From Patescibacteria group bacterium (GTDB taxonomy: Bacteria; Patescibacteriota; Microgenomatia; Levybacterales; UBA12049), in the NCBI GenBank assembly GCA_038062115.1, contig JBBTXS010000004.1:69009-133008 (forward strand): DNA of 64,000 bases, in the 5' to 3' direction. The notes under the pieces are model-generated. The model was not told the DNA's origin and did no database searches. It saw only the letters and a program-made list of their open reading frames with translations. The position numbers and the translations under genes were made by a program. Positions 19,220 to 63,895 of this stretch are shown one piece after another. The first letter of the stretch is position 1. Every line of letters starts with the position of its first letter.

Positions 19220-21291
19220 GAAAATCAAACATTTTTTATACTTTGCTTTTTTTTGGTTTTATTTTTTTTATATTTCGTAATTGGTTTCTTGCGCCTCAGA
19301 TTATTGGTGGAGACTGGCCATATCTTTTTCCTGAAATGCTGCGGGATCCTTCAATATATTTTTCTTCCTGGAATCCCGGACAAGGCAACGGTCTTGGTGG
19401 GATAAACCCTGTCTATTCTTTGAGCATGTTTTTCGGCTTCACTGTCTTTTTGGCGCACACATTTAACATTCCATGGGTATTTATTTATAAGTTTTTTTGG
19501 TTTGCTCTTCCGCTACTTTTTGGAATTTTCTCTAGTATTTATTTGGTAAAAACTATTCTCCCACAATCATCTCTATGGCAGAAATTGCTTTCTTCATCTA
19601 TTTTTATCACAAATACATATTTTCTTATGATTGTTGGAGGCGGACAAATGGGAGTTGCCTTATCTTATGCCATTGCGCCACTTGTTCTCGCTAAATTTAT
19701 AAAACTTATTGACAATCTCCTTTTAAATAAAAATTTCAAATTTCAAATTTCAAATGTCAAATACGCAATAATTAGCGGATTATTTTTGACATTACAGGTT
19801 ATGTTTGATCCAAGAATTGCTTACTTAACAATGATTGCCGTGAGCGTGTATTATGTATTTTGTATTAGGTATTACATATTGAAAAGAAATATACTTAATA
19901 CTTTATACTTAATACTTTATGCTCTTGTGATTCCTGTTAGTATTGCCTTGCTTCTTCATGCAGCATGGATACTTCCTATTTTATTTCTTCAATCAAGCCC
20001 TATCCCGCAAGGATTTACAAGTGTTGAGGGATTTCGCTTTTTTAGTTTTGCAGATGTTTCTCACGCTTTTTCTTTGCTGCATCCAAATTGGCCAGAAAAT
20101 ATTTTCGGCAAAATATATTTTATGAGAAGTGAGTTTATTTTAATACCGATATTAGCTTTTTCATCGCTGTTATTTTTAATCAATTCAACAATAAAGCAAG
20201 TCAACAATAAGGCAATATTATTCTTTGCTCTTCTTGGATTGATTGGAGTATTTTTAGCAAAGGGCGTAAGGGATCCTTTTGGGCAAGTGAATCAATGGCT
20301 CTTTATTTCTATTCCTGGAATGAGTTTTTTCCGAGATCCAACAAAATTCTACTTATTAATAATACTATCTTATTCAGTGCTCATCCCTTTCAGTTTATTA
20401 CAAATTTCAAGGAAAGTATCAAGTATCAAGTATCAAGTATTAGGCAAAAAAATAAATATGCATAATACATACTACATAATACTCGCTACTTTTTTGGTAT
20501 TCTGGTTATTTTTGATCCGCCCTGCTGTTTTTGGTGAACTTGGTGGTACATTTCAAAAACGTGAAGTACCAGAAGAATACGTAAAACTTAAAGATTTTCT
20601 ACATAGTCAGCCTGATTTTTTTAGAATTTTATGGATTCCCCGTCAGCACCGTTTTACTTACTATTCTTTAACGCATTTACCTGTTGAGGCTGAGCCGCTC
20701 TTTAAGAAAGCAAAAATTATAGATATCGTTAATCAGCTGCGGAAGCCCGGGACAAAGAAATATCTGTCAGAACTTAGTATAAAATATATCATTGTTCCAT
20801 ACGATCCAAATGGTGAAATTTTTGTAAAAGATAGAAAATACGATGAAGTTGCGTATCTTAAGGCAATCGAGCACCTAGAGGATATACCATGGCTAGTAAG
20901 ATCGAGACAATTTGAAAAAATTGCAGTGTTTGAAGCGAAGAGTTCCCCGAAAGCTCTTTTTTGGCTAGAAGAAAAAGGGAAAATTACTTATTCCACAGAC
21001 GACATTACGCATTATAATATTAATGTTGAAATCGATTCCCCGCAGAGGCTTATTTTCTCAGAAAATTTTCATCCAAAATGGCAGTTGGTACTTAGTAATA
21101 GAGTAATTCATGCACAGGAAACCGATGAAGGATTGAATAGTTTTTTATTGAGCAAGGGAAATTATCAGGGAAATATAGTATTTTCTGGAGATAAATACTA
21201 TGTGTATGGAAAAATTATATCTTTAAGTACGATGCTTTTAGTAGTTGTCTTTTTTTTTGTAATTCATAAGAAAAAAGTATACAATACATAA
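19216..21291 (+). CDS. GT-C-like polytopic membrane protein, distant paralog 4 of 4
   Basis: 691 aa, GTG start in a GTGA overlap. GGDWPYLFPE near the N-terminus, IPGMSFFRDPTKFY, FHPKWQLV C-domain motif, terminal TM. Carries two in-frame repeat arrays. Confidence 0.45.
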   Translation: MRKSNIFYTLLFFGFIFFIFRNWFLAPQIIGGDWPYLFPEMLRDPSIYFSSWNPGQGNGLGGINPVYSLSMFFGFTVFLAHTFNIPWVFIYKFFWFALPLLFGIFSSIYLVKTILPQSSLWQKLLSSSIFITNTYFLMIVGGGQMGVALSYAIAPLVLAKFIKLIDNLLLNKNFKFQISNVKYAIISGLFLTLQVMFDPRIAYLTMIAVSVYYVFCIRYYILKRNILNTLYLILYALVIPVSIALLLHAAWILPILFLQSSPIPQGFTSVEGFRFFSFADVSHAFSLLHPNWPENIFGKIYFMRSEFILIPILAFSSLLFLINSTIKQVNNKAILFFALLGLIGVFLAKGVRDPFGQVNQWLFISIPGMSFFRDPTKFYLLIILSYSVLIPFSLLQISRKVSSIKYQVLGKKINMHNTYYIILATFLVFWLFLIRPAVFGELGGTFQKREVPEEYVKLKDFLHSQPDFFRILWIPRQHRFTYYSLTHLPVEAEPLFKKAKIIDIVNQLRKPGTKKYLSELSIKYIIVPYDPNGEIFVKDRKYDEVAYLKAIEHLEDIPWLVRSRQFEKIAVFEAKSSPKALFWLEEKGKITYSTDDITHYNINVEIDSPQRLIFSENFHPKWQLVLSNRVIHAQETDEGLNSFLLSKGNYQGNIVFSGDKYYVYGKIISLSTMLLVVVFFFVIHKKKVYNT
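19732..19759. repeat. 7-nt tandem array AATTTCA x3 + AATGTCA, in-frame
   Basis: Read directly from the sequence. Translates as NFKFQISNVK inside 19216..21291. Confidence 0.85.
20416..20483. repeat. composite repeat: GTATCAA x3 + GTATTAG, A-rich spacer, TACAWAM heptamer array; in-frame
   Basis: Read directly. Translates as VSSIKYQVLGKKINMHNTYYIIL. Shares the 18-mer TACATACTACATAATACT and its overall layout with 51183..51265. Confidence 0.85.
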
Positions 21292-36611: not shown

Positions 36612-36660
36612 ACTTTCATTTTACTAAAAAGAAAAAAATAAAGCAATACACTTCGACTCT

Positions 36661-36799
36661 GACATTACCCCACTTTGTAGCTGTCATTGCGAGGAGACCC
36701 GCAAAGCGGGGCGACGTGGCAATCCCATTGTGAAAAAAGAGATTGCTTCGCTTCGCTCGCAATGACATGAGTAATTTGAAGCAAAACTGGGGTAGTGTC
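36661..36799. repeat. nested palindromic element: outer inverted repeat GACATTACCCCA / TGGGGTAGTGTC enclosing a GTCATTGCGAGG...CTCGCAATGAC unit (36683-36766)
   Basis: Read directly. The inner arms also contain the CCCGCaaaGCGGG hairpin. The track ORFs 36616..36861 and 36665..36973 are translations of this repeat. Confidence 0.8.
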
Positions 36800-36813
36800 A
36801 GCCCAGAAGGGTA

Positions 36814-38269: not shown

Positions 38270-39472
38270 ATGTTGATTGGTATTGACGGCAACGAGGCTA
38301 ATGTAGAAAAAAGAGTTGGGGTTGGAGAATACTCCTTTGAACTACTTCGGCAGCTCAAAGAATCTAGAATTCAGAATCTAGAATTCAGAATCTATTTAAA
38401 AAGAAAACCTCAAGATGATTTTCCAAAAGAATCCACAAACTGGCAATATCGAATTATCGGACCGCGCAAACTGTGGACGCAGATAGGATTACCATTTGAT
38501 TTGTATTTCCATAAACCAAAACCCGATGTGTTTTTTACACCCACCCATTATGCTCCACGCTTTTCTCCTATTTCAACTGTAATTTCAGTAATGGATTTAT
38601 CCTACATCCATTTTCCTGAGATGTTTAAACCTTCAGATTTGTATCAGCTTAAGAATTGGACGGGATATTCAGTGAGAAATGCAAAAAAGATCTTAACTAT
38701 CAGCAGAGCCAGTAAAGATGATATAATCAAATTGCATCAAGTGTTAGAAGAGAAGGTGGTAGTTACTTATCCAGGAATAAAAGTCAAAAGTCAAATGTCT
38801 CCGCCAAAGGCGGATCAGCCTCTGGCTGAAAAATCCAAAATGCAAAGTTCAAAAGTGCTTAAAGAAAAATATAAGATTGAAGGGGATTATATTTTGTTTG
38901 TGGGGACGCTGCAGCCGAGGAAGAATATTGTGAGGCTTATTGAAGCATTCTCAAGGATTATACACCCCCGAGGTGTGCGTGCCGTCGCAAACCACCTCGG
39001 GGGTGGCCGAATGGACTCCCCCGAGGTGAACTATTTGGTCATTGTTGGTAAAAAGGGATGGTTATACGGGGAGATATTTGAGGCTCCTAAGAAGTTTGGA
39101 GTAGAAGATAGAGTTAAGTTTTTAGATTTTGTTCCCGATGAAGATCTTCCTCTTTTTTATCAAAATGCTCTTTGCTTTGTTTTGCCAAGTCTATATGAAG
39201 GGTTTGGTTTGCCGGTTTTGGAAGCAATGCAATACGGCTGCCCTGTAATTACAAGTAATGTCAGTAGTCTTCCCGAGGCAGGAGGAGATGCGGCACTTTA
39301 TGTAAATCCGCTGGATGTTGAGGACATTAAAAAAAATTTAGAATTCATAATTCAGAGTTCAGAATTACGTAAAAAGCTTATCGAAAAAGGATATAAACAA
39401 GTTAAAAAGTTTAGTTGGGAGAAAACAGCGAGAGAAACTTTGAGCGTATTGGAGGACGTGGCGAGAACTTGA
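38270..39472 (+). CDS. glycosyltransferase family 4 carrying four in-frame repeat-derived segments
   Basis: [42 protein letters not shown]. Paralog of 47727 and 59477. Confidence 0.85.
38363..38390. repeat. 7-nt array TCTAGAA TTCAGAA x2 (perfect 14-mer x2), in-frame
   Basis: Read directly. Translates as [10 protein letters not shown]. Only this reading frame of the array lacks stops. Confidence 0.85.
38780..38857. repeat. 78-nt composite: AAAGTCA heptamers, twin GC hairpins TCCGCCaaaGGCGGA + TCAGCCtctGGCTGA, then AAAATSC-type heptamers; in-frame (26 codons)
   Basis: Read directly. Translates as [26 protein letters not shown] in the interdomain linker. Confidence 0.8.
38963..39031. repeat. 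GC-rich 69-nt element, copy E1, in-frame (23 codons)
   Basis: CCCCCGAGGTG (38965-38975) and an identical copy (39018-39028) are both perfectly complementary to CACCTCGGGGG (38993-39003). Translates as [23 protein letters not shown]. Confidence 0.8.
39337..39364. repeat. 7-nt array TTTAGAA TTCATAA TTCAGAG TTCAGAA, in-frame
   Basis: Read directly. Translates as [11 protein letters not shown] near the C-terminus of the GT4. Confidence 0.75.
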
Positions 39473-40141: not shown

Positions 40142-41035
40142 ATGACATTTCTATCAATAGTTATTCTTTCCTATAACACAAAAGACTTAACGCTTTCTTG
40201 CTTGCAATCGTTGATAGAACAATACAGAAAGGAGTTAAAAAGTGGGACGGTTGAGATTATTGTTGTTGATAATGCGTCAACTGATGGCTCGGTAGAAAGT
40301 ATTAAGTATTATGTATTAAGTAGTAAGTATAAAGACGTTAGATTAAGGGTTATAGAAAATGACGAGAATTTGGGGTTTGCTAAGGGTTGTAATATAGGGG
40401 CAAAAAAATCAAAAGGGAAATATATTCTTTTTCTAAATTCGGATACACAAGTGCTAGACAAGGGTTTTTTGAAAATGATAGGGTTTTTAGATAGTAATCA
40501 AAAAGTTGGAATTTTGGGAGGAAGGCTTTTAAATCCAGACAATTCACCCCAACCATCTGCTGGAAAATTTTACAATCTTTTTAATTTATTTTTAATGCTT
40601 ATAGGTAGCGAAAGATTTGGATTACTCCGTAAAAGTCCCAAAAATATTGAAAGAGTTGATTGGGTAAGCGGAGCATGTTTGATGATAGGGAAAAGCGTAT
40701 TTGATCAACTAAAGGGATTTGATGAAAATTTCTTTATGTATATCGAAGATATGGAACTGTGCTTTAGAGCAAACAAACTTGGTTTTTTAACTTATTTTTA
40801 TCCAGATATCAAGATAATACATAAAGAACTTGGAAGTAGCAATCGGTCTTTTGCTATAATACACATCTATAAAGGGCTTTTGTATTTTTACTCCAAGCAC
40901 AAAGGTTACTTTCAATATATTATTGCCAAAGTAATGCTAGAAGTGAAAGCTAAAGTCGGAATTGTTGTCGGTTTCCTTATTGGCAATTCTTCCTTAAAGA
41001 AAACTTACATTGAGGCAATAAAATTTAAGATATGA
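40142..41035 (+). CDS. glycosyltransferase family 2
   Basis: LSIVILSYNTKDLT, VVDNASTDGS, LGFAKGCN, LFLNSDT, FFMYIEDMELCFR. Confidence 0.85.
   Translation: MTFLSIVILSYNTKDLTLSCLQSLIEQYRKELKSGTVEIIVVDNASTDGSVESIKYYVLSSKYKDVRLRVIENDENLGFAKGCNIGAKKSKGKYILFLNSDTQVLDKGFLKMIGFLDSNQKVGILGGRLLNPDNSPQPSAGKFYNLFNLFLMLIGSERFGLLRKSPKNIERVDWVSGACLMIGKSVFDQLKGFDENFFMYIEDMELCFRANKLGFLTYFYPDIKIIHKELGSSNRSFAIIHIYKGLLYFYSKHKGYFQYIIAKVMLEVKAKVGIVVGFLIGNSSLKKTYIEAIKFKI
40299..40333. repeat. 7-nt array GTATTAA GTATTAT GTATTAA GTAGTAA GTATAAA, in-frame
   Basis: Read directly. Translates as SIKYYVLSSKYK directly after the DNASTDGS motif. Confidence 0.85.
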
Positions 41036-46831: not shown

Positions 46832-47730
46832 ATAAAAAAATTGATGTATCAATTGTTGTAGTTACCTACAACTCGTTTGACACCATAAAAGAATGCATTG
46901 ATTCTATTGAAAAAACCGTTAAAAAAAACTCATTTGAAATTGTTGTTGTTGACAATAATTCATCGGATGGATCCGCAGAGGGTATTAAGTATTATGTATC
47001 AAGTATTAAGTATGAGAACGTTAGAATTATTCCAAATAAAAAAAACATAGGGTTTTCGAAGGCCAACAATCAGGGCGTCAAAATTTCACAAAAAAGCCGT
47101 TATGTTTTGTTTTTGAATCCCGATGCAATCGTTTATGAAAACACTATTGATGGGATGGTGGATTTTATGAACAAAACTCCCAACGCGGGAGCGGCAACGT
47201 GTTTTATAGAGCTTAAAAATGGCAGACTTGACGATTCCTGCCACAGAGGGTTTCCTACACCTTGGAGGTCTTTATGTTATTTTATGGGTTTATCAAAGTT
47301 TTTTCCAAAAAGTAAATTTTTTGCAGGGTATAACATGACCTATCTTGGTCTTAATAAAACTCACGAGATAGATGCTCTGGGAGGGTCTTTTATGCTGATA
47401 AGGCGCGAAATAGGCAAAAGATTGGGTTGGTGGGACGAAGACTTTTTCTTTTATGGAGAAGATATAGACTTTTGTTTTAGAATAAAAGAAATAGGGTATA
47501 AAATATATTTTGTACCCGAATATAAAGCGCTTCATTACAAAGGGGTTTCAAGCGGAATAAAAAAAGTTTCGGAGTCAATAAGCAAAGCAACAAAAGAAAC
47601 AAAACTTTTTGCAACAAAACATAGATTTAACGCGATGCGAATTTTCTACAAGAAACATTATGAAAAAAAGTATCCAAAAATTGTTACGTGGCTTGTTTAT
47701 GGGGCAATTTGGGCTAAAGAACATTTATGA
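46828..47730 (+). CDS. glycosyltransferase family 2
   Basis: VSIVVVTYNSFDT, VVDNNSSDGS, IGFSKANN, LFLNPDA, FFFYGEDIDFCFR. ATG 46828 (ATGA overlap) is preferred over the track start 46816. Confidence 0.85.
   Translation: MNKKIDVSIVVVTYNSFDTIKECIDSIEKTVKKNSFEIVVVDNNSSDGSAEGIKYYVSSIKYENVRIIPNKKNIGFSKANNQGVKISQKSRYVLFLNPDAIVYENTIDGMVDFMNKTPNAGAATCFIELKNGRLDDSCHRGFPTPWRSLCYFMGLSKFFPKSKFFAGYNMTYLGLNKTHEIDALGGSFMLIRREIGKRLGWWDEDFFFYGEDIDFCFRIKEIGYKIYFVPEYKALHYKGVSSGIKKVSESISKATKETKLFATKHRFNAMRIFYKKHYEKKYPKIVTWLVYGAIWAKEHL
46982..47016. repeat. 7-nt array GTATTAA GTATTAT GTATCAA GTATTAA GTATGAG, in-frame
   Basis: Read directly. Translates as GIKYYVSSIKYE. 37 of 42 nt are identical to 40299-40340 by my count. 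Confidence 0.85.
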
Positions 47731-48869
47731 AAATAGGAATTGATGCTAGGCTTTGGAATGAGTCGGGAGTTGGAAAATACACTAGGAATCTTGTTGAACA
47801 GCTTCAGATAATTGATCGCAAGAATGAGTACATGTTGTTTGTTTTAAGTCAAGATAGAAAAAAGATTCTGAATCAAGTTCAGAATGACAATTTTAGCATA
47901 GTAAATGCAGACATAAGGTGGCATACACTGGAAGAGCAGATGAAGTTTTCATCGATAATTAATAAAGAAGATTTGGATTTAATGCACTTTACTTATCCTT
48001 CGGTTCCTATTTTTTACAATAAGCCTTTTATTGTTACAATTCATGATTTAATTTTGCATCATTTTCCGACAGGAGAAGCCTCAACTTTGGCTTTGCCTTT
48101 ATATTATTTAAAGCACTTCGCATACAAATTAGTGATTTTGCAAGCAGCAAAAAAGGCAAAAAGAATTATTGCAGTATCAAAGGCTACAAAAAAGGAGATT
48201 ATTGACCATCTTAGAGTACCAGAAAAAAAAGTAGTGGTAATATATGAAGGGGTAAGTAACGAGATTACAAATCCAAAATCTCAAATTCCAAATAAATCCC
48301 AAAATCCTAAATACAAAATACTTAATACTAAATACTTTTTGTACGTTGGGAATGCATATCCGCACAAGAACCTAGAGCGAATGCTTATGGCATTCGCAAG
48401 TATTAAGTATAGAGTATTAAGTATAAAGTTGGTTTTTGTTGGCAGAGAGGATTATTTTTACAAAAGATTAAAAGAAAAGGTAAAAAATATGGGTTTAGGA
48501 AAATCAGTGAATTTTTTAGGAGAAGTTAGCGATGATGAATTGATCTGTCTTTATAGAGATGCGAGAGCATTAGTTATTCCATCCTTGATGGAAGGGTTTG
48601 GGCTTCCAGCGTTGGAAGCCATGGCAAATAAATGTTTAGTTTTAGCATCAGATATTCCTTCGTTGAAAGAGGTCTGCGGAAATGCGGCAATTTATTTTGA
48701 TCCTTATGGTATTGATGATATATCAAAAAAAATGATAGAGGTTTACTCTAATGACATAAATCATTATAGTAGCAATATCAACAAAGGTTTTGAAAAAACA
48801 AAAATATTTTCTTGGGAGAAAATGACAAGAGAAACTCTAAAGGTATACGAAAGCTGCGTTGGCGGCTGA
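47727..48869 (+). CDS. glycosyltransferase family 4 carrying at least three in-frame repeat-derived segments
   Basis: MKIGIDARLWNESGVGKYT, LYVGNAYPHKN, PSLMEGFGLPALEAMANKCLVLASDIPSLKE. Confidence 0.85.
   Translation: MKIGIDARLWNESGVGKYTRNLVEQLQIIDRKNEYMLFVLSQDRKKILNQVQNDNFSIVNADIRWHTLEEQMKFSSIINKEDLDLMHFTYPSVPIFYNKPFIVTIHDLILHHFPTGEASTLALPLYYLKHFAYKLVILQAAKKAKRIIAVSKATKKEIIDHLRVPEKKVVVIYEGVSNEITNPKSQIPNKSQNPKYKILNTKYFLYVGNAYPHKNLERMLMAFASIKYRVLSIKLVFVGREDYFYKRLKEKVKNMGLGKSVNFLGEVSDDELICLYRDARALVIPSLMEGFGLPALEAMANKCLVLASDIPSLKEVCGNAAIYFDPYGIDDISKKMIEVYSNDINHYSSNINKGFEKTKIFSWEKMTRETLKVYESCVGG
47875..47902. repeat. half-unit of the GTCATT/ATGACAATT palindromic family (hairpin ATTCTGAA-tcaag-TTCAGAAT + GACAATT end), in-frame
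   Basis: Read directly. Translates as ILNQVQNDNF. Confidence 0.7.
48267..48334. repeat. composite repeat: AAATCY heptamers + AAATAAATCCCAAAATCC + four reverse-orientation GTATTAA-family units (TAAATAC AAAATAC TTAATAC TAAATAC); in-frame
   Basis: Read directly. Translates as NPKSQIPNKSQNPKYKILNTKY in the interdomain linker. Confidence 0.8.
48400..48427. repeat. 7-nt array GTATTAA GTATAGA GTATTAA GTATAAA, in-frame
   Basis: Read directly. Translates as SIKYRVLSIK, at the same alignment position as the GC-rich element E1 in the 38270 paralog. Confidence 0.85.
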
Positions 48870-48874
48870 GCCGT

Positions 48875-48955
48875 ACCGCAGGTGTAATCGTATCTACACC
48901 TCGGATGGTGGCAGCCCTGAGCGAAGTCGAAGGGCATGACTCCTCCGAGGTGGAC
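48875..48955. repeat. GC-rich element, copy E2 (intergenic, chimeric)
   Basis: CCGCAGGTGTA..TACACCTCGG hairpin, then GGTGG, then AGCCCTGAGCGAAGTCGAAGGGC, then GACTCCTCCGAGGTGGAC. Starts 6 nt after the GT4 stop. Confidence 0.7.
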
Positions 48956-49183
48956 ATCAGATTGGGAATGCTATTGTGGTTTGGTAGTCGTACTTGGATT
49001 TAGTGTTTAGCGGACCGTATTTATATGTTTCAAAGACCAAGCCTCTAAGTTTTATCTTCTGGCTTTCTATATACGAAAACAGCTTTTGGTAAATGAGAAT
49101 TAAATATTTATATGGACCATTATAGTTAAATGCTAAGACTTTGGTTTTGGGGTAAGGTTTGAAATAAAAATCATTATGTTGGT

Positions 49184-49254
49184 ATTCACCTTGGAGGAGC
49201 CGAGGTCGTTGCCTCGTCACCTCCGAGGTGTTGCGGAGCGATTCTTCGAAGGTG
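49184..49254. repeat. GC-rich element, copy E3 (reverse orientation, about 71 nt, degenerate)
   Basis: The reverse complement aligns with 63288-63356 over its whole length (shared ...GAGGCARCGACCTCG.CTCCT.C.AGG.GAA). Confidence 0.7.
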
Positions 49255-49274
49255 GAGCTTAGTATAAAGGTTAT

Positions 49275-49383
49275 GGCTGGGTCATAAATACCCATTTGTC
49301 ATTCCGAGCGAGCGTGAGCGAGTCGAGGAATCTCGTTGAAGGAGATTTCTCGGCAAGCTCGAAATGACAATTGTGACCCAGTC
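49275..49383. mobile_element. MITE-like nested palindromic element flanked by an 11-bp direct repeat
   Basis: Outer inverted repeat GGCTGGGTCA / TGACCCAGTC. Inner GTCATTCCGAG...CTCGAAATGAC (49298-49368). ATAAAGGTTAT occurs at 49264-49274 and again at 49384-49394. Confidence 0.5.
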
Positions 49384-49598
49384 ATAAAGGTTATCTCAAG
49401 AGGCGTATTTTGGGATTATAGGCGTTGTTGAGATAAAAAGTTATCTCAGAGGGTTTACATTTTAGCTTTAATCTTTTTGCTTCTTGCCAAAGAGTTTTTA
49501 TATACTCAGTAATCTTTGCATATTCCCCGTGTCCTACTTTCATACAAAATAGATTGAATGGGCCAAAGTTTTTGGTTTGAAATATGTTCTTTATGCTC

Positions 49599-49636
49599 GT
49601 CATTCTGGCAAGCGAAGAATGAGCGCGTCCAGAATC
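49599..49636. repeat. half-unit of the GTCATT palindromic family (GTCATTCTGG..CCAGAATC)
   Basis: Read directly. Overlaps the putative start of the GyrI-like pseudogene. Confidence 0.55.
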
Positions 49637-49660
49637 TATATCGTTTTGGAAGAAAAATGA

Positions 49661-49885
49661 CTTAATATTTTTCAGGAACCTATAGTCGATAGAATTCAAA
49701 GAGATAACGCAATTTTTTCTATCGTATCTGTAGGTAGTCTAGATATTATTGATCCTAAAAAAGACGAAAACGGTAGATATTTCTGTGGTTACAATCAAGA
49801 AGAGTATCGTGGGCTTTTGAATAAATTAAAAGCGGATTTGCTTTTGACCATGTTTCTTCGCGGCGGCGCACCGATTGTGAAGTAG
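49661..49885 (+). pseudogene. orphan open frame without a start codon (3' remnant of an unidentified gene)
   Basis: 74 sense codons ending ...DENGRYFCGYNQEEYRGLLNKLKADLLLTMFLRGGAPIVK then TAG. There is no ATG/GTG/TTG until close to the end. Confidence 0.2.
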
Positions 49886-49889
49886 CTGT

Positions 49890-50632: not shown

Positions 50633-51778
50633 ATGAAAATTGCATTGGTGTATGATCGGGTAAATAAGTGGGGAGGGGCAGAGAGAGTGCTTTTGGCATT
50701 GCATGAATTATTTCCAGATGCACCTATTTACACTTCGGTTTACAATCCAATAACTGCATCTTGGGCTAAAACTTTCGATGTTAGAAGTTCATTCTTGCAG
50801 AAATTTCCTTTGGCATCTATAGCTCATGAGTTATATGCGGTCTTGATGCCCATTGCCTTTGAAAGTTTTTCTTTTGACCAATATGATCTTGTAATTTCAG
50901 TTACGAGTGAGGCTGCAAAAGGGATAATAACCAAACCAAAAACAAAGCATATTTGCTATTGTCTAACTCCAACCCGTTATCTTTGGAGTGCTTACGATGA
51001 TTACTTTAGAAATCCCTTATTGCGATTTCTATCAAAACCAGTAGTTTCGTATCTTAGGACTTGGGATAAAATTGCAGCGCAAAGGCCAGATGCGTACGTT
51101 GCAATTTCTCAAGAGGTCAAAAGAAGAATTAAAAAATATTATGGGAGAGAGTCAGTGGTTGTATACCCGCCAGTAGACATCAGTAGTATGTATCATGTAT
51201 CAAGTATTAAGTATAAAAAAAATGCAAATGAAATACATAATACAAACTACATACTACATAATACTGTCGATTACTTCCTCATCGTCTCTCGGCTTGTTCC
51301 ATACAAACGAATTGATATTGCGATTAGAGCATTTAATAAGCTTAGACTTCCATTAAAAATTATTGGCGTAGGGTCACAAGAAAAGTATCTTAAAAGCATC
51401 AGTAGCCCAACTATAGAATTCCTTGGCAACTTGACTGAAGATGAGTTAGTAAGCTATTATAAGGGATGTCGTGCTTTAATTTTTGTAGGTGTTGAAGATT
51501 TTGGTCTTACTGTTTTGGAGGCACAGAGTTTTGGAAAACCCGTGATTGCGTTTCGCGGAGGCGGTACACTGGAGACTATAAAAGAAGGAAAAACTGGTGA
51601 GTTTTTTAGTCAACAAAATCCAAAATCACTTACAGATGTGCTTAAAAGATTCGATGAAAGAAAATATAAAAGTACTGACTGCATAGAGAATGCTAAAAAG
51701 TTTTCGTTTGAAAGATTTAAAGAAAAGCTTATGGATGTCGTTGCGAGGAGTTTAGCGACGAAGCAATCTCAAATTTGA
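50633..51778 (+). CDS. glycosyltransferase family 4
   Basis: MKIALVYDRVNKWGGAERVL, FLIVSRLVPYKR, VGVEDFGLTVLEAQSFGKPVIA. Start trimmed from 50579 to ATG 50633. The last 14 codons and the stop lie inside a palindromic repeat. Confidence 0.85.
   Translation: MKIALVYDRVNKWGGAERVLLALHELFPDAPIYTSVYNPITASWAKTFDVRSSFLQKFPLASIAHELYAVLMPIAFESFSFDQYDLVISVTSEAAKGIITKPKTKHICYCLTPTRYLWSAYDDYFRNPLLRFLSKPVVSYLRTWDKIAAQRPDAYVAISQEVKRRIKKYYGRESVVVYPPVDISSMYHVSSIKYKKNANEIHNTNYILHNTVDYFLIVSRLVPYKRIDIAIRAFNKLRLPLKIIGVGSQEKYLKSISSPTIEFLGNLTEDELVSYYKGCRALIFVGVEDFGLTVLEAQSFGKPVIAFRGGGTLETIKEGKTGEFFSQQNPKSLTDVLKRFDERKYKSTDCIENAKKFSFERFKEKLMDVVARSLATKQSQI
51183..51265. repeat. composite repeat: five GTATYAA-family units, A-rich spacer, four TACAWAM units; in-frame
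   Basis: Read directly. Translates as SSMYHVSSIKYKKNANEIHNTNYILHNT. Same architecture and orientation as 20416..20483. Confidence 0.85.
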
Positions 51779-51822
51779 TGGGGATTGCTACGCCCTTCGA
51801 CAAGCTCAGGGCTCGCAATGAC
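51737..51822. repeat. GTCGTTGCGAGG...CTCGCAATGAC palindromic element spanning a gene junction
   Basis: Read directly. The left arm encodes VARSLATKQSQI. The TGA stop (51776-51778) lies in the central loop. The right arm ends 10 nt before the manC ATG. Confidence 0.8.
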
Positions 51823-58246: not shown

Positions 58247-59480
58247 GCCTACAGGTGTAATCTGGGCCGGACCAGTTTACAATATTGGAGGATACGGAAA
58301 CGTTTCAAGAAACTATATAAAAGGCCTTGTTAGGATTGGCGTTTCTGTTCGTATATTCAACTTAGATCGCGTAGATTTGGAGATTGGAAAAGACAATATA
58401 AAATTCCTAGATTCTCTTTCCAATACTTATGTTGGCACAAGACCAGTCTTAATCGTCCATTCCCTTCCTCCCCATTTTGATATAGTCAAAATACCAAAAG
58501 TTTACAAAAGAATTGGCTGCACTATATTTGAAACCAACAGGATACCTAAAGTATGGGTAAAACCATGCAATAGAATGGATGAGATTTGGGTACCCTCTCA
58601 TTTTAATCTCAAAACATTTTCTGATTCTGGAGTTAAAAAAGAAAAAATAAAGGTTATCCCATACGCAGTTGATACAAATATTTTTAATCCAAAGATAAAA
58701 CCTCTTCCGTTGCTAAGTCTTAAAAAATTTAAATTTTTGTATGTCTTCAACTATTCTTATCGAAAAGCTCCGGAGATTCTTCTTGAGGCATATCTTAAAG
58801 AGTTTAAGAAAGACGAAGATGTATGCCTTATGCTAAAATCTATCAATACCGACTATCCAAACTTAAAGTTCAATAAAAATCATATAAAAAAGATTATTAC
58901 TAAAATAAGAGGTTCTGGAAACAATTTGCCACAAGTTCATCTTATCGACTCTCCTTCATCTATTGACGAGCTTGCGTCCCTTTATAAAGCAATTGATTGC
59001 TATATATCTGTTGATAGGGCGAATGGTTGGGGTATGCCATGTATGGAGGCTATGGCTGTAGGCAAACCAGCCGCAACTGTAAATTGGAGCGGAAGTACGG
59101 AATTTATGAAAAAGAATAACAGTTTTCTTATATCCCCTAAAAGGCTAGTTGCGGTTGATAAAAAAACTTCAAAAATGCTTCCAATTTATAGTGGCCAAAA
59201 ATGGGCAGACATTGATATAAACAGTCTTAGAAAACTACTAAGATATATTTACCAAAATAAAGATAAAAGGATAGAAATTGCTAGAAATGGCTACAATACG
59301 ATTGTAAACAATTTTTCTATTGAAGCCATCGCGCAAATTACTGCGAGTCAACTAGGTTTCTCGCGTATAAAAATTTATAATAAATTTCTATATTTTATGA
59401 ATAGTCTTTTCGATATCAAACACAAGGGATTGAAAAGATTATTTTTAAGATTATATCGCCAGGTGGAGATAAAGGTATGA
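58236..59480 (+). CDS. glycosyltransferase, GT-B fold (GT4-like)
   Basis: VDRANGWGMPCMEAMAVGKPAATVNWSGSTEF corresponds to the GT4 E-x7-E region. Start trimmed from 58182 to ATG 58236. Confidence 0.55.
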   Translation: MNLKPTGVIWAGPVYNIGGYGNVSRNYIKGLVRIGVSVRIFNLDRVDLEIGKDNIKFLDSLSNTYVGTRPVLIVHSLPPHFDIVKIPKVYKRIGCTIFETNRIPKVWVKPCNRMDEIWVPSHFNLKTFSDSGVKKEKIKVIPYAVDTNIFNPKIKPLPLLSLKKFKFLYVFNYSYRKAPEILLEAYLKEFKKDEDVCLMLKSINTDYPNLKFNKNHIKKIITKIRGSGNNLPQVHLIDSPSSIDELASLYKAIDCYISVDRANGWGMPCMEAMAVGKPAATVNWSGSTEFMKKNNSFLISPKRLVAVDKKTSKMLPIYSGQKWADIDINSLRKLLRYIYQNKDKRIEIARNGYNTIVNNFSIEAIAQITASQLGFSRIKIYNKFLYFMNSLFDIKHKGLKRLFLRLYRQVEIKV

Positions 59481-61813: not shown

Positions 61814-62482
61814 ATGTACATCTATCTTGATGAAAGTGGCGATTTAAGAAGAAGTGATACTAAATATTTTGTTGTTGGAACGTATACTGTAGGTGATCCT
61901 AAACGTATAGCAAAGGCTTTTCGAAAATGGCAAAAAAGTAAATTTCCCAAGAAGTTAAAAGGTCAAACTGAGGTGAAATTTAATGACTCACATATCACCG
62001 ATAAACTACGACTTAAAACGATAAAATATTTAGCAAAACAGGATATTAGAATCTTTTATACATTCCTTAAATTAACAAATATTCCTGAAAAATACCGCAA
62101 AGAAGGAAAAGTATATGAAACAGGTCTCCTTTATACTGAGATTGTTGGATATACTCTGGAGTTATATTTGCCTCTTGCCGATAAAGATTTTCGAGTGTAT
62201 AGAGATCCACGAAGTTTAAAGGGAATACGTGTAGAAAAGTTTAATAAAATGGTAAAAGCACACCTTCTCCCTTTACTTCCTATAGATGTTTTATTTGAAA
62301 TTCAAGCTCCTGATTCGACAATTACACCTCTTATTCAAGTTGCTGATTGGGTAAGCGGAGCATTAGCAAGATACCATGAGGGAAAACTTTTAGGACAAGA
62401 GTTATACAATGGACTTAAAAAGAATATTATTCAAGAGAAAGAGCTCTTCTCAGATTATTGGATAAAGAAGTGGGAAAAATAA
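61814..62482 (+). CDS. DUF3800 family protein
   Basis: MYIYLDESGDL N-terminal motif and C-terminal DSTITPLIQVADWVSGAL motif are both characteristic of DUF3800. Confidence 0.7.
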   Translation: MYIYLDESGDLRRSDTKYFVVGTYTVGDPKRIAKAFRKWQKSKFPKKLKGQTEVKFNDSHITDKLRLKTIKYLAKQDIRIFYTFLKLTNIPEKYRKEGKVYETGLLYTEIVGYTLELYLPLADKDFRVYRDPRSLKGIRVEKFNKMVKAHLLPLLPIDVLFEIQAPDSTITPLIQVADWVSGALARYHEGKLLGQELYNGLKKNIIQEKELFSDYWIKKWEK

Positions 62483-62509: not shown

Positions 62510-62671
62510 AAAATTTGGAGTGGCGGTGCTATCCGTGATTGTCCTAGACTCAGTAGCGAGTGTTCCACTCGGGAGCATCTAGGCACTAGATAGCTTATTA
62601 TTACCAACTCCGAATAAAACTATATCATTTCCTAGAGTGTTTTGCAATAGGCAAATTATTCATATTTTCAA

Positions 62672-63895
62672 ATGAAAATTCTTTTTGTCATCCCTCCGCC
62701 ATATTTACCCAATAGACTTCATAGAAATAGATCATTTGATTTAATCAAGATTCTATCAAAAAAGCATGAGGTGCATCTTTTTTGTCTGACAACCCAAAAA
62801 GAAACACCTAAAGAGTTTAGTCAAATAAAAAAAGTCTGTAAATCCATAAACATTATTTATCTAAACCCGCTAAGAGCTTTGTTAAGTTGCTCCCTTTTTC
62901 CATACCTACCAGCAGAAGTAGCATTTTGTCGATCAAATCTTGCAAAAAAAACAATCGCGAATATTATCAAAAATAAAAAAATTGATCTTATCTATGCAAA
63001 GCGGTTAAGAAGCGCCATATTTATTCCAGAATTAAATATCCCAATTATTTTGGATACCACAGATGCGATGAGTATGTTTTATAACCGATTGTACAAAGGT
63101 TCAAATTATCCAAAAAAAATAATTTATAAGTTGGAGGAAGTAAAGTATAGGATTTTTGAGAAGAAAACTATGGAAAAGTTTAGAGACTGGATAGTTTGTT
63201 CTCCTGTAGATCAAAAATACTTACAAAAATTTGGAAGGGATGTTAATATTCATCTAGTTCCGAATCCGGTAGATGCATATTACTTTTCACCTCCGAGGAG
63301 TCCTTCGGCCACCTCGAAGGTGGCGAGGCAGCGACCTCGACTCCTTCGAGGCGAACACTTTAATTCTTTGTTGTTTCGTGGGCTTATGGATAAACCAGTT
63401 AATATTGATGCCTGTTTATTTTTTGCAAAAGAAATTTTGCCAAAGATTAAAAAAGATATACACGACGTAAAACTTTTTATTGTTGGTCCCAAGCCCCACT
63501 CCTCAATAAAAAAATTAGCAAACGAAAAAGACATTTTTGTAACTGGTTTTGTAAAGGATGTAAGAGAATTTATTAGTAGAACAAGTATATCGATCTGTCC
63601 TGTTCGGATTGGATCGGGGACAAGATACAAAATATTACAAGCTTGGGCGATAGGGCAACCAGTTATTTCAACAACTCTTGGCGCCGAAGGACTTATGTAT
63701 AAAAAAGACAAAAATATTGCGATAGCAGACAGCCCCAAAGAATTTGCAGAACAAATAATCAATCTATTAAAAAATAAAGAACATTATGATACACTTGCAA
63801 AAAATGGACGCAAAACCATTGTTGCAGAATATAGCTTCAAAGTTATTGCCCAAAAACTTGAAACAGTAATTCAGAATGTCAAAATTGCTAAATAA
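62672..63895 (+). CDS. glycosyltransferase family 4 carrying a GC-rich in-frame element
   Basis: MKILFVIPPPYLPNR, GSGTRYKILQAWAIGQPVISTTLGAEG. Confidence 0.75.
   Translation: MKILFVIPPPYLPNRLHRNRSFDLIKILSKKHEVHLFCLTTQKETPKEFSQIKKVCKSINIIYLNPLRALLSCSLFPYLPAEVAFCRSNLAKKTIANIIKNKKIDLIYAKRLRSAIFIPELNIPIILDTTDAMSMFYNRLYKGSNYPKKIIYKLEEVKYRIFEKKTMEKFRDWIVCSPVDQKYLQKFGRDVNIHLVPNPVDAYYFSPPRSPSATSKVARQRPRLLRGEHFNSLLFRGLMDKPVNIDACLFFAKEILPKIKKDIHDVKLFIVGPKPHSSIKKLANEKDIFVTGFVKDVREFISRTSISICPVRIGSGTRYKILQAWAIGQPVISTTLGAEGLMYKKDKNIAIADSPKEFAEQIINLLKNKEHYDTLAKNGRKTIVAEYSFKVIAQKLETVIQNVKIAK
63288..63356. repeat. GC-rich 69-nt element, copy E4, in-frame
   Basis: CCTCCGAGG (63290-63298), CCTCGAAGG (63312-63320) and CCTTCGAGG (63343-63351), plus the CGAGGcagcgaCCTCG hairpin. 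Translates as (S)PPRSPSATSKVARQRPRLLRGEH. Confidence 0.8.

Follow-up and report, generated by a model that had tools for sequence, protein, structure and literature searches.

The disrupted regulator gene and the element within it

The stretch of patescibacterial DNA analyzed here (the window, 64,000 nt in full, with 34% GC and scattered GC-rich hairpin islands) carries on its minus strand the remnant of a gene with a GyrI-like domain. Two minus-strand ORF fragments, each corresponding to one half of this domain, flank a palindrome of 109 nt at 49275–49383. Pfam family PF06445 matches the C-terminal half (E=6.5e-5), and the N-terminal fragment is annotated at NCBI as a 102-aa hypothetical protein of "Patescibacteria group bacterium". 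The direct repeat ATAAAGGTTAT was placed by reading of the sequence and by pattern search at 49264–49274 and 49384–49394, exact in both copies and abutting both ends of the palindrome, in agreement with the position and sequence given in the first-pass annotation. A third exact copy occurs at 58647–58657 with no element near it. The features of the locus are as follows.

48957–49274, minus strand: C-terminal half of the GyrI-like domain, with E3 in frame, to the native stop (Pfam and tblastn)
49184–49252, minus strand: E3, a GC-rich hairpin insert of the CACCTCCGAGGTG type, in frame; also at this position in L012 and L013; the hairpin of L014 is shorter
49264–49274, plus-strand coordinates: left direct repeat ATAAAGGTTAT; on the gene (minus) strand ATAACCTTTAT, encoding (E)ITFI(L)
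49275–49383: 109-nt element, probably a miniature inverted-repeat transposable element (MITE), with short terminal inverted repeats and an interior made of an inverted dimer of a GC-rich hairpin module with a 7-nt loop between the units
49275–49284, plus strand: terminal inverted repeat at the long-arm end, GGCTGGGTCA; with the adjoining AT of the repeat, ATGGCTGGGTCAT
49298–49332, plus strand: hairpin module A, GTCATTCC...GGAATC, variable stem positions complementary
49344–49368, minus strand: hairpin module B, inverted, GTCATTTC...GAAATC on the minus strand
49374–49383, minus strand: terminal inverted repeat at the short-arm end, TGACCCAGTC on the plus and GACTGGGTCA on the minus strand
49384–49394: right direct repeat ATAAAGGTTAT
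49391–49705, minus strand: N-terminal half of the GyrI-like domain and the end of the linker helix (ortholog residues ~102–186)
49408–49411, minus strand: T4 run (A4 on the gene strand) with a 1-nt deletion relative to the A5 of three orthologs
49599–49636, minus strand: E5, a single hairpin module GTCATTCTGG...CCAGAATC in a 14-codon in-frame insert (IDSGRAHSSLARMT)

The terminal inverted repeats GGCTGGGTCA and TGACCCAGTC are complementary at 9 of 10 positions and the core is bracketed by GTCATT (49298) and AATGAC (to 49368), so that the termini and the GTCATT core described in the first-pass annotation were both recovered. The plus strand was predicted to fold into one long hairpin (−56.7 kcal/mol). 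The element is non-coding, every frame being closed or shorter than 37 codons, and it had no match in Rfam, either at gathering thresholds or at E≤10. Translations of the element in two frames had no candidate matches in a protein search; gene callers evidently do not read through it. A search of the window found no second member of this 109-nt family, which agrees with the earlier description of the locus as the sole copy.

Homologs from other metagenomes (P0001, 248 aa; P0007; P0004) have the intact architecture of a MerR helix-turn-helix (HTH) followed by the GyrI-like domain. In tblastn comparisons, ortholog residues ~102–186 mapped to 49705–49409 in one frame and residues ~187 to the end mapped to 49274–48960 in a different frame. 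No counterpart of the MerR HTH (ortholog residues 1–101) was detected upstream in the window by tblastn, and 49706–49889, considered as a possible HTH remnant, had no detectable similarity to it. The earlier description of the host as a broken GyrI-like gene can thus be refined to a MerR-HTH and GyrI-like regulator remnant without its HTH.

The two GyrI-like halves are put out of frame by the loss of 1 nt from an A-run that lies 14 nt upstream of the insertion; there the window has CCCAAAATAC versus CCCAAAAAYAC in all three orthologs. The sequence including this run was 100% identical in at least five independent assemblies, which excludes a random assembly error as the source of the deletion. 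In silico deletion of 49275–49394 alone left the halves in different frames, as the first-pass annotation had noted, and deletion of these 120 nt together with the addition of one A gave a single ORF (...FYLNNAYNPKNTPLEITFILSSTFEES...TTIAFPI-stop / ...NAYNPKNTPLEITFILSS...AFPI-stop). If retained, the insert, being 120 nt long and hence in frame, adds 40 codons with one TGA in the frame joining the halves; TGA terminates genes here under code 11 (for example at 48867–48869). The first-pass annotation had also assigned E3 a probable part in the disruption, and this has to be given up: E3 is in frame and shared with orthologs, one of which (P0004) has a similar insert in that position and reads straight through it, and the real lesion is the 1-nt deletion in the A-run. 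With its HTH gone and the A-run frameshifted, the gene is in this lineage a pseudogene with or without the element.

Each of the fetched orthologs was found to be disrupted in its own way, with a −1 change in an A-run of L014 (~1195–1215; GAAAAATAAAT), a stop or a shift of frame where L012 has its E3-like insert (~781), and a split into two ORFs in L013 (~520–545). The gene appears to be in decay throughout the clade, in two cases through loss of one A from an A-run, with low-coverage assembly error being possible in the Logan contigs. A 136-aa gene beside the ortholog in L014 proved unrelated to the aspartyl-protease gene of the window. Near the insertion, 49384–49403 and 49433–49452 resemble each other (ATAAAGGTTATCTCAAGAGG and ATAAAAAGTTATCTCAGAGG, encoding LEITFI and SEITFY on the gene strand), and at the target site the window (EITF, versus EIAL in the orthologs) is closer to this upstream strand than the orthologs are.

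The empty target site in orthologs

Ortholog DNA from three other metagenome contigs (L012, L013 and L014) was aligned to the gene strand of the window. All three were colinear with it on both sides and showed one gap of exactly 120 nt, corresponding to the element plus one copy of the 11-mer. Each ortholog has a single homologous 11-mer (ATAGCCCTCAT in L013, ATAGCTTTAAT in L012 and ATAGCGCTAAT in L014, versus ATAACCTTTAT in the window), with EIAL-I as its translation in the orthologs versus EITF-I in the window. A single 11-mer together with the 120-nt gap is what an empty target site should look like in such an alignment. The element was inserted at the AT-rich ATAACCTTTAT of the gene strand, within MerR/GyrI-like coding sequence, and the site now stands once on each side of it; after excision, the left direct repeat is read in the frame of the C-terminal half. 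An empty site would read ...GAGATAACCTTTAT / ACTAAGC... across the junction (marked by the slash), and the reconstructed site is identical under every assignment of the element termini. The comparison with an uninterrupted ortholog across the junction, proposed in the first-pass annotation, thus came out in favor of an insertion in all three cases. No presence/absence polymorphism was seen among the Hainich assemblies, where every same-strain contig covering the site carries the element; a contig of a related strain (L010, 91% identical) stops short of the site.

A dispersed family in groundwater metagenomes

Metagenome contigs were scanned with a pattern that fits both arms of the element (CTGGGTCAN{1,15}TTGTCATTNCGAGC), and 31 loci were returned. 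These included 16 further non-redundant full copies of 105–114 nt on different contigs, which align end to end with the window copy. Subfamilies differ by a few substitutions and by a 9-nt or 11-nt loop insertion, and many copies are identical within a subfamily; the interior of one copy (L146) is identical to that of the window copy. The termini are kept in all 17 copies. Members of the family lie on contigs of 32–41% GC and are mostly intergenic, the window copy being unusual in its position inside a former coding sequence. The genome of the window has a coverage of 24 in Hainich well H51, and five to six other copies are on H51 contigs with coverage of 20–22; given these similar values, those copies may be part of the same genome.

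A scan of a genome collection for the termini only (GGCTGGGTCAN{75,105}TGACCCAGYC) gave, among the at least 116 stretches listed, only GC-rich genomes or a chance match, the one Patescibacteria match among those listed (L083) being a chance match inside a gene. No match to the element was found in viral contigs, plasmid records or phage records. Neither the window, nor ~10 kb beyond its right end, nor 4 kb beyond its left end, nor any of the fetched loci contained an autonomous element or a transposase with these ends, and no second pair of element termini was found in the window or at any locus. Locus L148, which has one element end and a different interior, was considered as an autonomous partner and rejected; it encodes no transposase, only MreB-like and glycosyltransferase-like ORFs.

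Flanking repeats and the length of the duplication

Exact repeats of 10–12 nt abut the element in 11 of the 17 copies, all of different sequence (11 nt in five copies including that of the window, 12 nt in four and 10 nt in two). Two copies have near-exact repeats matching at 9 of 11 positions, one matches at 8 of 8 positions up to the contig end, and three of the 17 (L133, L134 and L139) have no flanking repeat. As a control, the left flank of each copy was compared with the right flank of another (256 mismatched pairs), and shared repeats did not exceed 7 nt. One further insertion is split over two Hainich contigs that break inside the palindrome (L144 for one side, L156 for the other); its repeat, ATAATTGGTTAT, is 12 nt long. 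The search for duplications at other copies, likewise suggested at the outset, therefore showed that these have their own 10–12-nt repeats, and as the repeats are unrelated in sequence from copy to copy, the repeat is not part of the element.

The first-pass annotation had argued from the repeat itself, an exact 11-mer pair being unlikely by chance, and this argument does not stand: exact direct repeats that are 11 nt or longer and spaced 20–200 nt apart number 18 in the window, versus 9.1 ± 2.8 in first-order Markov simulations. Three other observations lie far beyond chance, namely that the repeat abuts both ends of the palindrome, that the orthologs lack exactly 120 nt, and that 11 of 17 copies have repeats of their own against at most 7 nt in the control.

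Of 18 left flanks, 17 have TAT as the 3 nt adjoining the short-arm end. Right-hand copies of the repeat likewise end in (T/C)AT, with one in TAA, and TAT is thus a target preference. Both element ends, read outward, fit TGACCCAGNCAY. At the other end, in 11 other copies the repeat begins 4 nt past CCCAG (after GCAC or TCAC), with AT in the left flank just before the repeat. In the window and in L144/L156 it begins only 2 nt past CCCAG (after CC) and itself starts with AT, which means for the window copy either a shortened terminus or a true duplication of 9 nt. The right terminus of the other copies reads CCCAG-NCAY, and at each end as many as 2 nt may be element sequence. An "11 bp" duplication had been claimed for the locus; the 11-nt identity is an observation that holds, whereas homology with the other copies suggests that the duplication proper is uncertain in length, probably 9–11 nt, or 7 nt if the two AT dinucleotides are counted with the element. 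Across the family the repeat length is 10–12 nt, close to one turn of the DNA helix, or 9–12 or 7–10 nt under other assignments of the termini, a looser distribution than most DDE transposases give.

Interior modules and other hairpin families

The interior of the element consists of two copies of a hairpin module of the form GTCATT-NN-loop-N'N'-AATC. Across the window and the fetched loci, 41 distinct units were found in which both variable stem positions are complementary, in four pair combinations (GC/GC, CC/GG, CT/AG and TC/GA), and the module occurs also in GC-rich contigs of unrelated organisms. We know of no name for it. Module sites and sites of the E3-type hairpin family are as follows.

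GTCATT module: 36683, 47864–47888, 49298, 49344–49368, 49599–49636, 51783–51822, 56925 and others in the window; many loci
CACCTCCGAGGTG-type (E3) hairpins: 38954–39034, 48842–48961, 49184–49252 and 63283–63360 in the window; ~715–790 in L012; ~620–690 in L013

One GTCATT module lies inside a glycosyltransferase ORF (47727–48869) and is translated as ...KKILNQVQNDNFSIV... Within the regulator remnant, the 14-codon insert containing E5 is missing from the orthologs P0001 and P0007. The presence of E3 at the same site in orthologs indicates that E3 is old and vertically inherited; P0003 has a large internal deletion with an E3-like stretch at its junction.

A second MITE-like family of ~145 nt was also observed. 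Its copy in the window (36659–36803) has the terminal inverted repeat CTGACAYTACCCCA and an interior made of an inverted dimer of GTCATTGC...GCAATC modules, and it lies between divergent genes without a flanking repeat. A 92%-identical copy in the same genome, 1.3 kb past the right end of the window (L165, 12598–12750), is flanked by the 9-nt direct repeat GCTGATTGG. AT-rich repeats of the AGTATTAAGTAT type occur at 20415–20493, 40298–40338, 46981–47021, 48392–48432 and 51182–51236, in frame within several glycosyltransferase genes (...SIKY... or ...KYKILNTKY...). The only Rfam match in the window was a DUF3800-V RNA at 62516–62612 on the minus strand (49.3 bits; gathering score 37.4), adjoining a DUF3800 gene at 61814–62482.

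Origin of the insertion

The palindrome at 49275–49383 is very probably a copy of a multi-copy, non-coding MITE of groundwater Patescibacteria whose insertion duplicates ~11 bp at AT-rich targets with TAT at the end. The central claim of the first-pass annotation, a target-site duplication around an inserted palindromic element, is supported by both the empty site and the other copies. Mobilization is proposed to depend on a transposase acting in trans, most likely of the DDE type, which would bind the 10–13-bp terminal inverted repeats (outward ...TGACCCAGNCAY), cut the two strands of a target ending in TAT ~11 (±1–2) bp apart and join the element ends there. Gap repair would then duplicate the target, and the resulting 120-nt in-frame insert with one TGA would split the GyrI-like domain between its halves.

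The interior invites a different reading, in which an inverted doublet of REP-like hairpins was moved as single-stranded DNA by a RAYT or IS200/IS605-type Y1 transposase, the flanking repeats being a by-product. An inverted dimer of a short GC-rich hairpin is the architecture of REP sequences and REPINs, and the 41 units with complementary stem positions, as well as the occurrence of the module in GC-rich contigs of unrelated organisms, fit this idea. Y1 transposases, however, insert beside a short motif and do not duplicate the target, so that the exact 10–12-nt repeats of 11 of the 17 copies and the near-exact repeats of three more make a REPIN less than the best fit. In addition, the outer 10–13-bp inverted termini are specific to the family and distinct from the module, and no Y1 transposase gene appeared in the Pfam listings of genes called on L001–L014 and L162–L167; we consider this origin improbable. 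Somewhat less doubtful, though still unlikely, is a composite element other than a conventional IS-derived MITE, in which a pan-bacterial REP-like module, present as an inverted doublet within family-specific termini, would be moved by an unrecognized enzyme with A-Y cuts and a flexible stagger. At least two families in this genome would be of that kind, the 109-nt one with an 11-bp duplication and the 145-nt one (36659–36803), whose sister copy has a 9-bp duplication. If this were true, the in-frame colonization of coding sequence by these modules (E3 and E5) would give Patescibacteria a general source of inserted peptides and of decaying genes.

Insertion could also have proceeded with no transposase at all, by a switch of template at a hairpin while DNA is replicated or repaired, or by microhomology-mediated capture, either of which could leave a short duplication. 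The variable repeat length, the A-Y that every junction follows (AT preceding the repeat and closing it, CAY where the element ends) and the failure to find a transposase in the window, its flanks and the fetched loci are all consistent with such events. Set against them are termini that are sharp and identical over at least 17 insertions at unrelated sites, a duplication length narrowly spread around 11 nt, and near-identical copies indicative of a copying burst of one defined unit, which together leave this explanation very little probability. Two further readings have almost none. If the 11-mer were a coincidence or an extension of a palindrome native to the locus, one could point to the abundance of exact 11-mer repeats in this AT-rich window (18, against ~9 expected) and to the 8 of 11 self-complementary positions of the 11-mer itself (ATAA...TTAT); we count it as refuted by the three orthologs, which lack exactly the element and one repeat, and by the other copies, which are flanked by unrelated and again duplicated sequences. 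Nor is it credible that the 120 nt are a tolerated peptide insert like the Rickettsia palindromic elements (RPEs), by which a protein that still functions would gain 40 codons. The insert is divisible by 3 in length, and the GC-rich hairpin inserts E3 and E5 of the same gene are in frame and open, but the insert has a TGA in the frame that joins the halves, the host gene lacks its HTH domain and is frameshifted, and the other copies of the family are not multiples of 3 and are mostly intergenic.

Implications for Patescibacteria genomes

Patescibacteria (CPR) have tiny genomes that are generally held to be poor in mobile DNA. Under the MITE interpretation, the ortholog empty site, the at least 17 insertions and the 10–12-bp duplication would together make this a well-documented, recently active MITE family, and non-autonomous transposition would add to gene decay and to assembly breaks in these genomes. 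Contigs from independent assemblies (L003, L006, L007, L144 and L156) break in the middle of the palindrome, at positions equivalent to 49334 and 49359 of the window, which points to the element as a cause of assembly fragmentation in these metagenomes. As it splits ORF calls, the element also offers a recognizable signature for annotators to mask. Beyond the documentation of the family, the event at this locus is an ordinary insertion in a pseudogene.

Comparison with known mobile elements

REPINs are REP doublets that form hairpins and are mobilized by RAYT transposases. In them, as in the element, a short GC-rich imperfect hairpin with a conserved head (here GTC-ATT...) is arranged as an inverted doublet with a short spacer, and the module is also dispersed singly. 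The element has this doublet in the form of two inverted GTCATT...AATC modules with a 7-nt loop between them. It differs from REPINs in its additional outer inverted termini and its 10–12-bp target duplication, and no RAYT (PF01797-type) gene was found in the Pfam listings for the ~78 kb of the genome visible.

With the RPEs the element shares a palindrome of ~100 nt in protein-coding sequence of a reduced genome and an insert length that is a multiple of three, and the neighboring GC-rich hairpin inserts E3 and E5 are translated in frame, as RPEs are. In contrast to RPEs, the window copy contains an in-frame stop and its host is a pseudogene, most family members are intergenic, and the target duplication is clear; to our knowledge, target duplication is not a described feature of RPEs. 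RPEs have no sequence similarity to the element.

Among bacterial MITEs, MIC231 of the Bacillus cereus group is mobilized by IS231A, a member of the IS4 family, and the Correia elements are MITEs of Neisseria. The element resembles bacterial MITEs such as these in its size of ~100 nt, the lack of an ORF, terminal inverted repeats, target duplications, a long hairpin, and a high number of near-identical copies, and differs from them in its host phylum, Patescibacteria, and in being without a known autonomous partner. Within the IS4 family, duplications of 10–12 bp are tabulated for IS231 and of 10–13 bp for IS4 (Table 1, PMC2266710), the range of the IS231 subgroup being that of the element. 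The end signatures of these subgroups are CAT... for IS231/ISH8 and -AATR for IS4 (PMC2266710). The ends of the element (RTGNCTGGGTCAT) fit neither of them, whether taken as GACTGGGTCA and GGCTGGGTCA or, if extended, as (T)ATGACTGGG and GTGCCTGGG, and the target preference described for IS231 differs from the TAT at one end of the element's duplication. With end sequences that do not match and no transposase partner found in the window, its flanks or the fetched loci, the element is not placed in any IS family. Nothing relevant, and no report of a MITE for the phylum, came up when the searchable literature was queried for the core sequence and for CPR/Patescibacteria MITEs. The element is non-coding and shorter than ~600 bp, has terminal inverted repeats, a target duplication with an empty site, and dispersed similar copies; it seems to represent a new and so far undescribed family of a well-known kind of element, the MITE.
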